Source: Acidimicrobiia bacterium (GTDB lineage Bacteria; Actinomycetota; Acidimicrobiia; Spongiisociales; UBA5794). From it: a DNA stretch of 51,717 nt. Under the pieces are notes generated by a model. It had not been told where the DNA came from, made no database searches, and saw only the letters and a list, made by a program, of their open reading frames with translations. The stretch is taken from positions 1 to 51,717 of the forward strand of contig JASJCF010000006.1 in the NCBI GenBank assembly GCA_030066265.1, read 5' to 3'. Both the position numbers and the translations under genes were made by a program. Within the stretch, counting starts at the first letter, position 1; each line of letters opens with the position of its first letter. This document shows positions 4,409 to 9,767 of the stretch, one piece after another.

Positions 4409-5026
4409 GTGACTGCCCGTGATCCGAACATCGAGCGCGATGTGCGCGCCATCGTCGAACGCATCGTCGACGGCTTGGTCGACGACGACGGCGGAGCTGA
4501 ACGGACCGAGGACGACGACCGAGCCGGATCCGACGAGGCCGCTTCAGCCGATATCTCAGCCGATGTCTCGTCGATCGCCGTCGGGGCCGATCACGGCGGC
4601 TTTGCGCTCAAGGAACGCATCGCCTTTCGTCTCAGGGAGCAGGGATACGACGTGACCGACTGTGGCACGGATTCCACCGACGCCGTCGATTACCCGGACT
4701 TCGCCGTCGCCGTGGCGCGCCAGGTGGCCGATCACCGCGTCGACATCGGGATCATGATCGACGGGGCCGGCATCGGGTCGTCGATGGCTGCCAACAAGGT
4801 GCCCGGTGTGCGCGCGGCGCTGTGTTACGACGTGTCGACCGCTCGCAACGCGAGGGAGCACAATCATGCGAATCTTCTCACGCTCGGCGCCGGCCTCATC
4901 GGTGACAGCCTCGCCTGGCAGATCGTCGAGACCTTCCTCGGCACCGCCGTCGGGCCTGGCCGCCATGCGAGACGCGTCGCTCTCATCGACGCGCTCGACG
5001 CCCGCGAATACGGGGTGACGGCATGA
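4409..5026 (+). CDS. rpiB: RpiB/LacAB-family sugar-phosphate isomerase with N-terminal encapsulation peptide (BMC cargo)
   Basis: [36 protein letters not shown] motifs; about 55-aa N-terminal extension with helix [16 protein letters not shown]. Confidence 0.92.
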
Positions 5027-5871
5027 CGATGCGCGACATCTCCCGGGAACAGCTCGTCGAGCTGGTCACCAGAGAGGTCCTGGCTGCACTCGCCGAGCGA
5101 GCCGACATCCTCTCGAGTCCAGAGAAGCTGCGTCAGGTGGTCGCCAATGGTGCCGACCGAGTGGCGTACCACGGCGATGCCGAGGACGTACCAGTCGACC
5201 TCGCCAAGTACATCGACCACACGTTGCTGCGCCCCGACACGACGGCTGCGGACATCGACGAGCTGTGCGACGAAGCGCTCGAGTATGGATTCGCCTCCGT
5301 CTGCATCAACCCGACGTGGGTGAAGCGATCTGCCGAGCGACTGCGAGGCTCCGATGTGAAGGTGTGCACGGTCATCGGGTTCCCGCTCGGTGCGAACACC
5401 ACGCAAATCAAGGCGATGGAGGCCAGAAGGGCGCTGCGCGACGGCGCCCGCGAAGTCGACATGGTGATCAACATCGGAGCGCTCAAGTCGGCGATGCCCG
5501 AGGTGGTTCGCAAGGACATCGAGCAGGTGGTCGATGCGGCCCACGAGGGCGGTGCGATCTGCAAGGTGATCCTCGAGACGGCGCTCCTCACCGACGAGGA
5601 GAAGGTCATCGCCTCGGCACTCGCCAAGCAGGCGAAGGCCGACTACGTCAAGACCTCGACCGGCTTCGGTGGGGGAGGGGCAACGGTCTACGACGTGGCC
5701 CTCATGCGTGAGACGGTGGGGCCGGACATGGGTGTGAAGGCTTCTGGCGGCGTGCGCACGCTCGAGGATGCCGAGGACATGATCGCAGCGGGCGCAACGC
5801 GGATCGGTGCGTCGGCGGGAGTTCAGATCGTAGGCGGAACAGAAGGAGATGATGATGGCGAGCGGTATTGA
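5023..5871 (+). CDS. deoC: Deoxyribose-phosphate aldolase (DERA) with N-terminal encapsulation peptide
   Basis: [23 protein letters not shown], Schiff-base [24 protein letters not shown]-terminal [17 protein letters not shown]. Confidence 0.96.
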
Positions 5872-6481
5872 GCTGCGTTCCTATGTGTTTCTCGACAGCT
5901 TGCAGCCCCAGTACGCCGCCTTTCTCGGCACGACGGCGCAGGGCTTCCTCCCTCTGGCGGGGGAGGCATCACTGTTCGTGGAGGTCGCCCCTGGGATCGA
6001 AATCAACCGATTGACCGACATCGCCCTCAAGGCCACGACGGTCAAGCCCGGCATGCAGATCATCGAGCGGGTCTTCGGGCTCCTCGAGATCCACTCGCCG
6101 GAGCAGGCCGAGACGAGGGCAGCTGGCGCCGCCATCCTCGACGAGTTGGGGCTCTCGGAGGACGATCGGGTCAAGCCCCAGGTGCTGTCGAGCCAGATCA
6201 TCCGCCGGATCGACGATCATCACGCTCAGCTCGTGAATCGCATGCGTCACGGTCAGATGATCATTCCCGGCCAGACGCTGTACGTACTCGAATGCAACCC
6301 CGCTGCGTATGCCGCCCTCGCTGCGAACGAGGCCGAGAAGGCATCGAACATCAACGTGCTCGAGGTCCGTGCTTTCGGCGCCGTGGGGCGCGTCTATCTC
6401 GGCGGTGAGGAACAGGATGTCGAGGTCGGCTGGCGAGCAGCCGTCGATGCGCTCGAAGGTCTCACGGGCCGCACCACATGA
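5855..6481 (+). CDS. BMC-T shell protein, circularly permuted double-stacking type (CcmP/CsoS1D-like)
   Basis: [72 protein letters not shown] at 5843-5848. Confidence 0.92.
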
Positions 6482-6530
6482 AGGATCACCACCAGGGAAT
6501 CGAAGCAATGGTCGAAACGGAGGAGCCCCA

Positions 6531-6833
6531 ATGGCAGATGCACTCGGGATGATCGAATGTCGCAGCTTCGCGGCGATGGTCGAAGCAGCGGACGCGATGG
6601 TGAAGGCCGCCAAGGTCGAACTCGTGGGATATGAGGAGACCGGCGGGGGCTATGTCACCGCTGTGGTGCGTGGCGATGTCGCGGCGGTCAAGGCCGCAGT
6701 CGACGCCGGTGTGCGCGGCAGCGAGAAGGTCGGCGAAGTGATTGCCACACACGTGATCGCACGTCCGCATGTGAACATCGATCTGGTATTGCCCCTCGGG
6801 CGTCAGGACGAGGCGAGCGACGCCGTCAGCTGA
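6531..6833 (+). CDS. BMC-H hexamer shell protein
   Basis: MADALGMIE..AADAMVKAAKV..GGGYVTAVVRGDVAAVKAA..HVIARPH (PduA/EutM/CcmK fold); strong SD GGAGGAG; true start ATG 6531. Confidence 0.97.
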   Translation: MADALGMIECRSFAAMVEAADAMVKAAKVELVGYEETGGGYVTAVVRGDVAAVKAAVDAGVRGSEKVGEVIATHVIARPHVNIDLVLPLGRQDEASDAVS

Positions 6834-8616: not shown

Positions 8617-9214
8617 TCGCCTCGGAGGCCCTGCGATGGCGGTGTGGGAGTTCTCATCGATCGTGGCCGGTGTGCACAGCGCCGACCAGATCGCCAAGGG
8701 AAGCCCCGTGTCGGATCTCCTGACCGGCACGACGCACCCAGGGAAGTACGTCGTGATGGTCTCGGGCGACACCGCTGCTGTCGATGTCGCCCGCGACATC
8801 GTCTCGGGTCTGGATCGCGTCCCCATCGACACCCGATTCCTCCCCGACGTCGCTTCCGACGTGGTCGACGCCGTGCTGCGTGCTGATGACGTCATCGAGG
8901 CGGAGGGGGAGGCGATCGGAGTCGTCGAGACGGCCTCGGTGTCGTCGAGCGTCGATGCCGCCGACGCCGCAGTGAAGGCGGCACGGGTGACCCTATCGGC
9001 CATCCGGCTCGCCGACGGACTCGGTGGCAAGGCCTACCTCGTCGTGGACGGCGACGTCGGCGACGTCGAGGCGGCGGTGGCTGCTGCGTGCGAGCGAGCT
9101 GCGCCGAATCTGGTGGATGCCGTCGTCATCGCGCAACTCACGGCAGATCTGAGGGATGACCTCGCAGCGACGACCCGGTTCGTCGAGCGCCTGCAACGGC
9201 GCGGAGGTGGCTGA
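8609..9214 (+). CDS. BMC-T shell protein, single-layer PduT-like
   Basis: Two BMC domains: EFSSIVAGVHSADQIAK..PGKYVVMVSGD and AIGVVET..AADAAVKAARV..ADGLGGKAY..GDVGDVEAAV; TTG start overlaps the dehydrogenase stop. Confidence 0.9.
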   Translation: MSDRLGGPAMAVWEFSSIVAGVHSADQIAKGSPVSDLLTGTTHPGKYVVMVSGDTAAVDVARDIVSGLDRVPIDTRFLPDVASDVVDAVLRADDVIEAEGEAIGVVETASVSSSVDAADAAVKAARVTLSAIRLADGLGGKAYLVVDGDVGDVEAAVAAACERAAPNLVDAVVIAQLTADLRDDLAATTRFVERLQRRGGG

Positions 9215-9216
9215 TC

Positions 9217-9489
9217 GTGAAGCTCGGACGGGTCCGCGGTTCGGTGGTTGCCACGGTGAAGGATCCCGGCATGGTCGGCATGCGCATGCTGATCGTCCAG
9301 CCACTCGGCGACGAAGGGATCGACAGCGGGCAGTGCGTCGTCGCTGCCGATGCGACGGGGCAAGCCGGTCTCGGCGATCGCATCTACTACGTGTCGTCGC
9401 GCGAGGCCGCCGAGGCGATGGAACCCCGGTTCGTGCCGGTGGATCATGCCATCGTCGGCATCGTGGATGCGGTGGAGGTTCGACCGTGA
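9217..9489 (+). CDS. BMC-P pentamer vertex protein 2
   Basis: MKLGRVRGSVVATVKD..QAGLGDRI..SSREAA..PVDHAIVGIVD; SD GGAGG. Confidence 0.93.
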   Translation: MKLGRVRGSVVATVKDPGMVGMRMLIVQPLGDEGIDSGQCVVAADATGQAGLGDRIYYVSSREAAEAMEPRFVPVDHAIVGIVDAVEVRP

Positions 9490-9767
9490 GAGTCGGACGG
9501 GTGGTCGGCACCGTCGTTTCGACGATCAATCACCCCTTCTTCGACGGCGAGAGGCTCCTCGTGTGCCGAATCGTCGATCGAGACACCGACACCGGCACGT
9601 ATCTGATCTGCACCGACCGGGTCGGTGCGGGATCCGACGAGACCGTGTTGATCCTCGACGAGGGATCGTCCGCCAGACAGATCTACGACGTGCCGCACGG
9701 GCCGATCCGATCGGTCGTGGTCGGTGTCGTCGACGACGTGCACGAGGCGGAACTCGGCTCGGAGTGA
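9486..9767 (+). CDS. BMC-P pentamer vertex protein 3
   Basis: GTG 9486 overlaps the previous stop; MRVGRVVGTVVSTINH..DRVGAG..DEGSSARQI..PIRSVVVGVVD (C-terminal part of track ORF 9156-9767). Confidence 0.92.
   Translation: MRVGRVVGTVVSTINHPFFDGERLLVCRIVDRDTDTGTYLICTDRVGAGSDETVLILDEGSSARQIYDVPHGPIRSVVVGVVDDVHEAELGSE

Follow-up and report, generated by a model that had tools for sequence, protein, structure and literature searches.

A probable, vertically inherited SPU-type microcompartment locus with a minimal enzyme set in marine-sediment Acidimicrobiia

The present analysis concerns a stretch of 51,717 nucleotides (hereafter the window) from contig JASJCF010000006.1 of an Acidimicrobiia bacterium (assembly GCA_030066265.1), in which nine genes at 4409-9767 very probably form a complete, vertically inherited bacterial microcompartment (BMC) locus of the sugar-phosphate (SPU) class, laid out in the architecture of those loci, assigned to subtype SPU3, that carry a fusion of RPI, an isomerase of ribose-5-phosphate, with the aldolase DERA. 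According to the listing of open reading frames (ORFs) and the reading of the sequence, all nine genes lie on the + strand in the order RpiB-DERA-Tdp-H-P-AldDH-Ts-P-P, AldDH being an acylating aldehyde dehydrogenase and Tdp, H, P and Ts the BMC shell proteins; the intergenic distances are -4, -23, +49, +30, +1, -8, +2 and -4 nt, and GGAGG-like sites precede most of the nine starts. Such an arrangement is far beyond chance, since a profile search of the 2.35-Mb genome (90.9% complete) found no BMC or EutN domain outside this locus and since the order is kept in 29 of 29 loci of relatives.

A preliminary description, made from the letters alone, had read the segment as a compact SPU-type metabolosome locus of nine co-oriented, abutting or overlapping genes, lying among housekeeping genes and without mobility genes, in an Acidimicrobiia-like genome. 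Gene order, coordinates and compactness are as it described them, and the class assignment holds, for DERA, an RpiB-type isomerase, an acylating AldDH, shell genes of the H, T and P kinds and a BMC-P triplet are all present. The setting agrees with the 20 flanking or large ORFs scanned, the window's other large ORFs being housekeeping genes. NCBI lists close relatives of the DERA (84-86% identity) under "Acidimicrobiia bacterium", the class label resting on the names of three proteins, two of them "Acidimicrobiia bacterium" and one "Actinomycetia bacterium". The value of the locus lies in its minimal enzyme set, in the missing phosphopentomutase gene deoB and in a strongly conserved Asp-type RpiB; it is no new kind of system.

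Assignment to the SPU class

SPU loci were named in 2014 (Axen, PMC4207490), expanded in 2021 to more than 280 loci from 26 phyla and seven subtypes (Sutter, PMC8217296), and dissected in 2024 by Dwyer et al. (PMC11585597), who assigned the RPI-DERA fusion to SPU3, where 20 loci, not all, carry it. The hallmarks of the class are found in the window: a DERA, the signature enzyme of all SPU loci, encoded within a BMC locus, with an N-terminal extension that DERAs outside BMCs lack and with the active-site Asp and two Lys conserved; an acylating AldDH bearing an encapsulation peptide (EP); an RpiB-type RPI, known from most subtypes, with an EP and a linker, lacking the catalytic Cys; and a shell in which three BMC-P join BMC-H and one or more BMC-Ts.

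With regard to subtype, the combination of RPI, Tdp, an N-terminal AldDH peptide and no PTAC leads, by the criteria of the published text, to SPU2 or SPU3, which those criteria alone do not separate; because the architecture is common to the fusion-bearing loci, a verrucomicrobial one included, the locus points to SPU3. It shares with SPU3 the architecture of the fusion loci, the CcmP-like Tdp and the N-terminal AldDH EP, whereas the fusion itself is absent, rpiB and deoC being split in the window and in 29 of 29 loci of relatives.

A number of observations weigh against so neat a label. A PduS homologue is frequent in all SPU subtypes except SPU6 (Dwyer 2024, PMC11585597), and no RnfC_N domain (PduS) was found in the 90.9%-complete genome, in which the three Complex1_51K matches all lie on contigs other than that of the locus. 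Among five genomes of the same architecture, RnfC_N exceeded the cut-off in one, there on another contig, and no PduS was found near the same-architecture loci of other phyla. The SPU2/SPU3 label is thus not a clean fit, and it follows text criteria rather than the profile models of the catalogue; shell assembly, encapsulation and substrate are all predicted from sequence.

Distribution and inheritance within the order

An EP-bearing DERA occurs in 31 of 41 sampled relatives (the window's genome and one with the gene broken over contig ends included). The preliminary description had left synteny to a survey of relatives, which gave the same nine-gene order in all 29 loci from 28 relatives' genomes, 24 of them complete and 5 truncated by contig ends, within a conserved housekeeping synteny; in every one of these loci rpiB and deoC are separate and overlapping. 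The conserved flanks comprise, upstream, an ABC ATPase and a divergent gene for a 269-aa protein and, downstream, a lipoprotein-like gene, a 6-phosphogluconolactonase, a hydrolase, a NUDIX-phosphatase fusion and a housekeeping rpiB. Because these flanks are conserved and the GC content is unremarkable (0.64-0.68 in the locus, 0.63-0.68 across the whole window), vertical inheritance is favoured, and the locus appears to be long established in this order and passed on vertically.

At the level of the class, BMC-P was found in 60 of 301 genomes, 56 of which belong to the window's own order (56 of 77) and 4 lie outside it. By family within the order, the counts are 15/16 (f1), 9/9 (f9), 7/7 (f12), 3/3 (f5), 3/3 (f6), 2/2 (f11) and 16/35 (f3), plus the window's genome. 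Three unpublished genomes (G027, G038, G277) contribute no loci and enter only the tallies of EP-bearing DERA, BMC-P, deoB and PF05014, which without them stand at 31/39, 59/300, 8/39 and 11/39, respectively. A whole order of marine-sediment Acidimicrobiia with a fixed, nine-gene minimal version offers a large alignment set for shell proteins and encapsulation peptides alike. Two full copies of the operon occur on different contigs of one genome (G024; L045 and L057), and a fourth, satellite-like BMC-P gene lies apart from the operon in four others (G016, G020, G171, G314).

Same architecture in other phyla

The nearest DERA representatives (50% clustering) include RPI-DERA fusions, the best of which, P0121, is 66% identical to the window's protein; a search of GTDB genomes with P0121 yielded 80 loci, none of them from Acidimicrobiia. 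Twelve of the 80 are complete, with every one of the nine genes placed as in the window. They come from Pirellulales and other Planctomycetota, from an uncultured bacterium, from six Gemmatimonadota, from an Anaerolineales chromosome and from a metagenome-assembled genome (MAG) of Akkermansiaceae; further loci follow the same order as far as their contigs reach. One architecture is common to five phyla. Identities between the window and these loci are 65-72% for Tdp, 74-81% for BMC-H and 47-58% for AldDH. True RPI-DERA fusions occur in five loci, against 32 with separate genes; of the fused loci, L060-L062 and L065 have the window's gene order and L063 ends with its contig after Tdp, and split loci with the window's order occur in three more phyla. 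Clustering of the flanking ORFs of 15 same-architecture loci revealed no widely shared extra gene except a TetR regulator in seven.

The preliminary description had also raised the possibility of an undescribed subtype, an idea that does not stand up to the identical nine-gene order in four other phyla, SPU3-type fusions among them. The locus may be regarded as a lineage-wide representative of a known architecture, new or at least not described on its own, and on present evidence as no new subtype. In the available text of the literature searched, no microcompartment locus of Acidimicrobiia was found described; one published report mentions BMC clusters in unspecified Actinobacteria MAGs.

All members of the same-architecture group have N-terminal helices on AldDH. 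A Chloroflexia locus (L085) has a different gene order and a 30% identical AldDH with a C-terminal peptide, by which it appears to be SPU6-like, and loci of Bacillota and Polyangia show further gene arrangements. In an unrooted AldDH tree of 44 loci (those whose best AldDH match exceeded 380 residues; truncated or frameshifted loci, such as L045, L047, L058, L064, L088, L100 and L130, were left out), a branch of length 0.91 (SH-aLRT 100) stands between all Acidimicrobiia sequences and the 15 from other phyla. Rooting the tree on L085 and L079 placed the other phyla inside the Acidimicrobiia; this rooting was rejected, the outgroup branch being 4.46 long.

Some local variants deserve mention. 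In the Pirellulales locus L060 a nucleoside phosphorylase gene (15676-16698) follows the shell genes, and the Anaerolineales operon of L070 is interrupted by a response regulator pair and followed by a class II aldolase (14627-16295, 17707-18537). In Gemmatimonadota and Akkermansiaceae, a gene for a TetR regulator stands ahead of the operon (L067:8988-9677; L087:6984-7841). Many near DERA representatives (P0124, P0126, P0134 and others, 450-530 aa) carry at the N-terminus a domain of some 220 aa other than RpiB, in one case with a weak Flavoprotein match (PF02441); flavoprotein-DERA fusions in Hodarchaeales compartments were described in a 2025 preprint. Acidobacteriota and other MAGs contain adjacent rpiB-deoC pairs with no shell gene within flanks of up to 10 kb on each side, some contigs being short (L071, L073, L074, L076, L077, L086, L092, L094, L101, L102, L109, L111).

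Enzymes predicted as cargo

Each of the three enzymes starts with a helix followed by a linker, which matches the encapsulation-peptide type, and such extensions on SPU enzymes have been described (Dwyer et al., PMC11585597). In DERA the extension measures about 58 residues, the domain beginning at about residue 60, and it is conserved in relatives, whose housekeeping DERAs match the window's protein from residue 52-59 onward; in the AF2 model (pLDDT 79.5) the N-terminal helices span residues 8-26 and 33-41, at low confidence. An alignment of 32 sequences shows no variation at the catalytic residues D146, K181, K210 and K239. This is the sole DERA match in its own genome, and its gene overlaps both rpiB and the first shell gene. 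The NCBI protein for the same DERA on this contig (P0281) has 236 aa and misses the first 46 residues, whereby the putative encapsulation helix is lost; late-start annotation of SPU DERAs is a problem raised by Dwyer et al. (PMC11585597).

The N-terminus of AldDH reads as an amphipathic-looking helix of the encapsulation type, LTDADVQAIIARVKERV, followed by a linker, with the helix motifs conserved in relatives. AldDH C-termini end in ...RRVSVVGALRIV (...VVGALRIV in the window), without C-terminal peptide or extra helix. After NF011927, the next profile matches are acetaldehyde-CoA dehydrogenase models, and the motif FDNNxxCxxEK around Cys288 is present in 27 of 29 loci of relatives, and all 15 other-phylum loci carry it.

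As for RpiB, the domain is preceded by an N-terminal extension of about 55 residues, in which the AF2 model (pLDDT 87.4) places a confident helix at residues 8-24 and an acidic, disordered linker of low confidence at 25-49. By Eisenberg hydrophobic moments, residues 6-23 form the most amphipathic 18-mer of the protein, unlike the N-terminal helices of DERA and AldDH, which are not singled out. In the alignment, Asp118 sits at the position of the catalytic Cys, which is retained by the housekeeping copy about 4 kb downstream of the operon. An Asp occupies this position in every SPU-locus RpiB aligned, those of other architectures (L085, L079) included, and D61, H62, D118, H151, N152, R185, H186 and R189 are invariant over 37 sequences. 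For SPU RPIs, the loss of the catalytic Cys together with a near-absent ribose-5-phosphate isomerase activity is already published, and the DERA-RPI pair of SPU6 forms a complex with little isomerase activity (PMC11585597). The Asp-type paralogue would most likely serve as a DERA-bound packaging partner.

The "several altered key residues" on which the preliminary description had partly based its suggestion of a new subtype are borne out in part: Asp118 of RpiB, the main change, and the YEETGGG and VIARPH motifs of BMC-H do depart from the usual residues, while D146, K181, K210 and K239 of DERA and Cys288 of AldDH are intact. Nor does the Cys to Asp change mark a subtype, being shared by all the SPU-locus RpiBs aligned and known from published SPU RPIs.

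Shell proteins

The shell set consists of one BMC-H, one BMC-Ts, one BMC-Tdp and three BMC-P. The first tandem-domain protein is matched by the CcmP model over 204 of 213 positions (residues 6-209), its 333 bits just missing the cut-off of 340; among solved structures it is closest to CcmP (4ht5/5lsr, 281 bits), followed by Haliangium chains (5v76/5v74, 240-247 bits) and CsoS1D (189 bits). It is accordingly predicted to be a CcmP-like, double-stacking pseudohexamer with a gated pore. Its residues E73-R74 lie within IIERVFG, and the pattern I.ER.[FY]G is kept in 29 of 29 loci of relatives; this pair I take to line the gated pore.

The single BMC-H is presumably the main shell tile. Its closest natural solved chain is HO-5815 of Haliangium ochraceum (147 bits), CcmK2 and EutM scoring about 106 bits. 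In its pore region, YEETGGG and VIARPH prevail among the Acidimicrobiia and are typical of that clade, the majority of sequences from other phyla having YEKTGGG and VIPRPH instead. The BMC-Ts protein matches TIGR02526 with 79.7 bits, far below the cut-off of 250, and has as solved relatives PduT-type chains (88-93 bits) and Haliangium BMC-T1 (5dih, 79 bits); its only Cys is residue 161 when numbering begins at the TTG at 8609. The ATG at 8636 is, however, the more likely start than that TTG, given the GGAGG upstream of the ATG and the matches of relatives, which begin at residue 8-10. The third BMC-P starts with a GTG overlapping the stop of the preceding gene (GTGA), and the starts of BMC-H and of this third BMC-P are internal to longer mechanical ORFs.

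Comparison with known systems

With SPU3 and SPU2 the window has in common the DERA extension, the EP-bearing, Cys-less RpiB-type RPI, the N-terminal AldDH EP, the CcmP-like Tdp, the BMC-Ts, the BMC-P triplet, the lack of PTAC and the gene order of the fusion loci. It differs from them in having rpiB and deoC as two genes, which an ATGA overlap couples in translation, in the lack of PduS from locus and genome, and in a Glu for Lys before the pore glycines of BMC-H.

SPU is among the most widespread metabolosomes, and the enzyme pair of SPU6 from Chloroflexi is the only one biochemically characterised (Dwyer 2024, PMC11585597). The spacing of the DERA residues is equal in both (D146/K210/K239 in the window, D165/K229/K258 in SPU6), and both have an RPI without catalytic Cys but with EP and linker, and no PduS. 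On the other hand, the AldDH of SPU6 has a C-terminal EP and belongs to another, EUT3-near branch, and the window's extensions are shorter (about 58 versus 70 residues in DERA, about 55 versus at least 75 in RPI). SPU6 was rejected as the subtype of the locus, for AldDH has no C-terminal peptide and is 30% identical to that of the SPU6-like L085.

The recipe of the model shell of Haliangium ochraceum (5v74 and related structures), i.e. BMC-H, BMC-Ts, CcmP-like BMC-Tdp and three BMC-P, is the same as in the window, the corresponding scores being 147 bits for BMC-H, 240-247 for Tdp and 79 for Ts; the Haliangium shell presumably includes two Tdp paralogues. The function of that compartment is unknown and any DERA lies outside its main locus (PMC8217296), whereas in the window DERA and RPI head the operon, which is why a Haliangium-type BMC was rejected. 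Finally, CcmP of the beta-carboxysome is the best match of the first tandem-domain protein, over its full length, among both solved structures and NCBIfam models, and both compartments are thought to pass sugar phosphates; by contrast, the CcmP score remains just below the equivalog cut-off and the locus contains no carboxysome enzymes.

Proposed function and alternative explanations

The organelle probably breaks down deoxyribose phosphate. In the mechanism proposed here, 2-deoxyribose-5-phosphate would enter the shell via the pores of the hexamers or of Tdp and be cleaved by DERA into glyceraldehyde-3-phosphate, which would exit to glycolysis, and acetaldehyde, which the shell would retain until AldDH, with NAD+ and CoA, converts it into acetyl-CoA (plus NADH). 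A profile search of the genome found PTAC (PF06130), Pta (PF01515), PduS and Fe-ADH all without match over cut-off; since no PTAC, PduS or alcohol dehydrogenase was found, the cofactors CoA/acetyl-CoA and NAD+/NADH would have to cross the shell, most plausibly through the gated, CcmP-like Tdp, as has been proposed for PTAC-less SPU loci (Dwyer 2024, PMC11585597). I infer that the compartment serves the catabolism of deoxyribose-5-phosphate derived from DNA or nucleosides.

It is on the supply side that this proposal meets its main difficulties. None of the genus's 10 genomes, among them the window's own and assemblies of 6-7 contigs at 95% completeness, yielded the phosphopentomutase gene deoB (TIGR01696); over cut-off it occurs in 10 of 41 relatives and in 8 of the 31 genomes with EP-bearing DERA. 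No pyrimidine-nucleoside phosphorylase was matched over cut-off in the genome, and the canonical route to deoxyribose-5-phosphate looks incomplete, a DeoD-like purine nucleoside phosphorylase being the only part present. Because neither deoB nor the pyrimidine enzyme was found, the nucleoside-derived role is weakened. PF05014 proteins (possible dNMP N-glycosidases) are present in the window's genome, and were considered as a general deoB-free source and rejected, for they occur in 11 of 41 relatives and are absent from several genomes that have the compartment and lack deoB. Likewise, the retention of all other RpiB active-site residues across five phyla fits badly with a purely structural role of that protein. 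Two questions are thereby sharpened, namely how a metabolosome works without a cofactor-recycling enzyme, and where deoxyribose-5-phosphate comes from when deoB is missing.

These same facts nourish the view that the organelle is real but has another physiological substrate or supply, i.e. that deoxyribose-5-phosphate arrives independently of DeoB or that a different sugar phosphate is the substrate of DERA and the Asp-type RpiB. Besides the scarcity of deoB and the missing pyrimidine-nucleoside phosphorylase, it draws on the encapsulation-type DERA being the genome's only one and on the invariant substrate-binding residues of RpiB, kept even though the RPI of SPU6 has little activity on ribose-5-phosphate. 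Yet the deoC equivalog model (cut-off 117) matches DERA with 290 bits, all catalytic residues being kept, phosphohexomutase-family enzymes or a deoxyribokinase could stand in for DeoB, a DeoD-like phosphorylase is encoded in the genome, a nucleoside phosphorylase gene directly follows the shell genes in the related Pirellulales locus, and PF05014, in 11 of 41 relatives, provides no consistent alternative; the DERA of SPU6, moreover, is active on deoxyribose-5-phosphate (PMC11585597). All in all, this view is unlikely. A bolder reading starts from the sugar-phosphate-binding residues, whose invariance across five phyla suggests that RpiB is perhaps no dead scaffold: the Asp-type protein would isomerise a substrate other than ribose-5-phosphate, e.g. 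turn the DERA product glyceraldehyde-3-phosphate into dihydroxyacetone phosphate, in a three-enzyme compartment fed independently of DeoB and reliant on Tdp for NAD and CoA. Such an activity could replace the triose-phosphate isomerase of some other SPU subtypes, but the proposal as a whole must be rated a long shot.

A separate subtype for the Acidimicrobiia loci, defined by a minimal three-enzyme set, by RpiB and DERA as separate proteins each with an EP and by a BMC-H pore region of lower basicity, is improbable, although not devoid of arguments. PduS, PTAC, Pta and Fe-ADH were not found, where Dwyer et al. list PduS for all subtypes but SPU6 (PMC11585597), and from SPU6 the locus is set apart by its N-terminal AldDH peptide; the Acidimicrobiia are parted from the 15 other-phylum rows by the long AldDH branch, YEETGGG and VIARPH are typical of the clade, and the literature searched, as far as its text was available, gave no link between Acidimicrobiia and microcompartments. 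What tells against it is that four other phyla have the same gene order and content, likewise without a nearby PduS, which makes the minimal set a feature of the shared architecture, and that the split state is the commoner one there too (32 split versus 5 fused); the catalogue of more than 280 SPU loci in 26 phyla may, for its part, already include such loci. As regards a decaying relic or an anabolic, carboxysome-like compartment, the latter could appeal to the best NCBIfam models for three kinds of shell gene, which belong to the beta-carboxysome (CcmP 333, CcmL 93/61/66 and CcmO 108 bits), all under their cut-offs. A relic would hardly show nine open frames, an order kept in 29 of 29 loci of relatives and invariant catalytic residues, and the non-shell genes of the locus encode DERA, AldDH and RpiB, with no RuBisCO, CcmM/N or carbonic anhydrase in the locus (a search of the genome for RuBisCO was not made); this reading is scarcely credible and close to refuted.

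Features, genomic context and transcription

The genes were identified with Pfam and NCBIfam profiles, and their coordinates are collected in Table 1. A 6-phosphogluconolactonase and a fusion of NUDIX and histidine-phosphatase domains lie near the housekeeping RpiB, and this pentose-phosphate neighbourhood with the housekeeping rpiB is retained in about 13 of 28 loci of relatives.

Table 1. Features of the window in and around the microcompartment locus, with profile scores in bits
Feature	Position	Strand	Profile match
269-aa protein, divergent	3521-4330	-	sub-threshold Pfam matches: HTH_17 (E 0.057), MerR_1 (E 0.15)
RpiB-like isomerase	4409-5026	+	PF02502 174.6 bits, domain residues 56-193
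DERA	5023-5871	+	PF01791 64.6 bits; TIGR00126 290 bits, residues 60-269
BMC-Tdp, predicted CcmP-like	5849-6481	+	Pfam BMC 24.6 bits; NCBIfam CcmP 333 bits
BMC-H	6531-6833	+	PF00936 100.8 bits
BMC-P, first of three	6864-7151	+	PF03319 100.8 bits
Acylating AldDH	7153-8616	+	NF011927 630 bits
BMC-Ts, PduT-like	8609-9214	+	two BMC domains, 91 bits
BMC-P, second of three	9217-9489	+	PF03319 82 bits
BMC-P, third of three	9486-9767	+	PF03319 75 bits
6-phosphogluconolactonase	10486-11256	-	
NUDIX-histidine-phosphatase fusion	12829-13851	-	
Housekeeping RpiB	13775-14413	-	

The divergent 269-aa protein, encoded outside the span given in the preliminary description, is a candidate regulator of the operon. 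Its gene stands directly upstream of rpiB in 24 of the 28 loci of relatives with any flank match; its first 65 residues or so are HTH-like, and they are followed by a coiled-coil-like C-terminus with Ser/Glu/Ala/Pro-rich repeats (SEAPR/SEVPV) near its end. No Pfam match exceeded the threshold and no family was assigned, and its ESM Atlas neighbours are hypothetical proteins of Actinomycetota, some clusters of which are 86-92% HTH_17. A promoter scan of 3400-10600 returned 0 promoter-like sites, a terminator scan of the same interval 2 terminator-like sites against 1.9 expected, neither sensibly placed, and an Rfam scan (3300-10600, E threshold 1) two matches at chance level.

Contigs from a sediment RNA library (X8) cover 4612-4861, 6517-6618 and 6589-6990, i.e. 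parts of rpiB and of BMC-H/BMC-P, at 97-99% identity, which gives a weak hint that close relatives transcribe the operon region; the parts that this run leaves uncovered are no evidence of silence. The contigs may also represent DNA carry-over or stem from relatives, which tempers what they can contribute to the proposed function. Small shares of the window in runs X4-X7 and X9 are no evidence of habitat. The window is almost wholly covered by a marine-sediment metagenome run, possibly its source, and partly by runs of another study. In addition, a contig of an independent study (X2) spans the ATGA junction of rpiB and deoC without gaps (4851-5120), and because of this gapless bridge the split of the two genes is no slip of the assembly.

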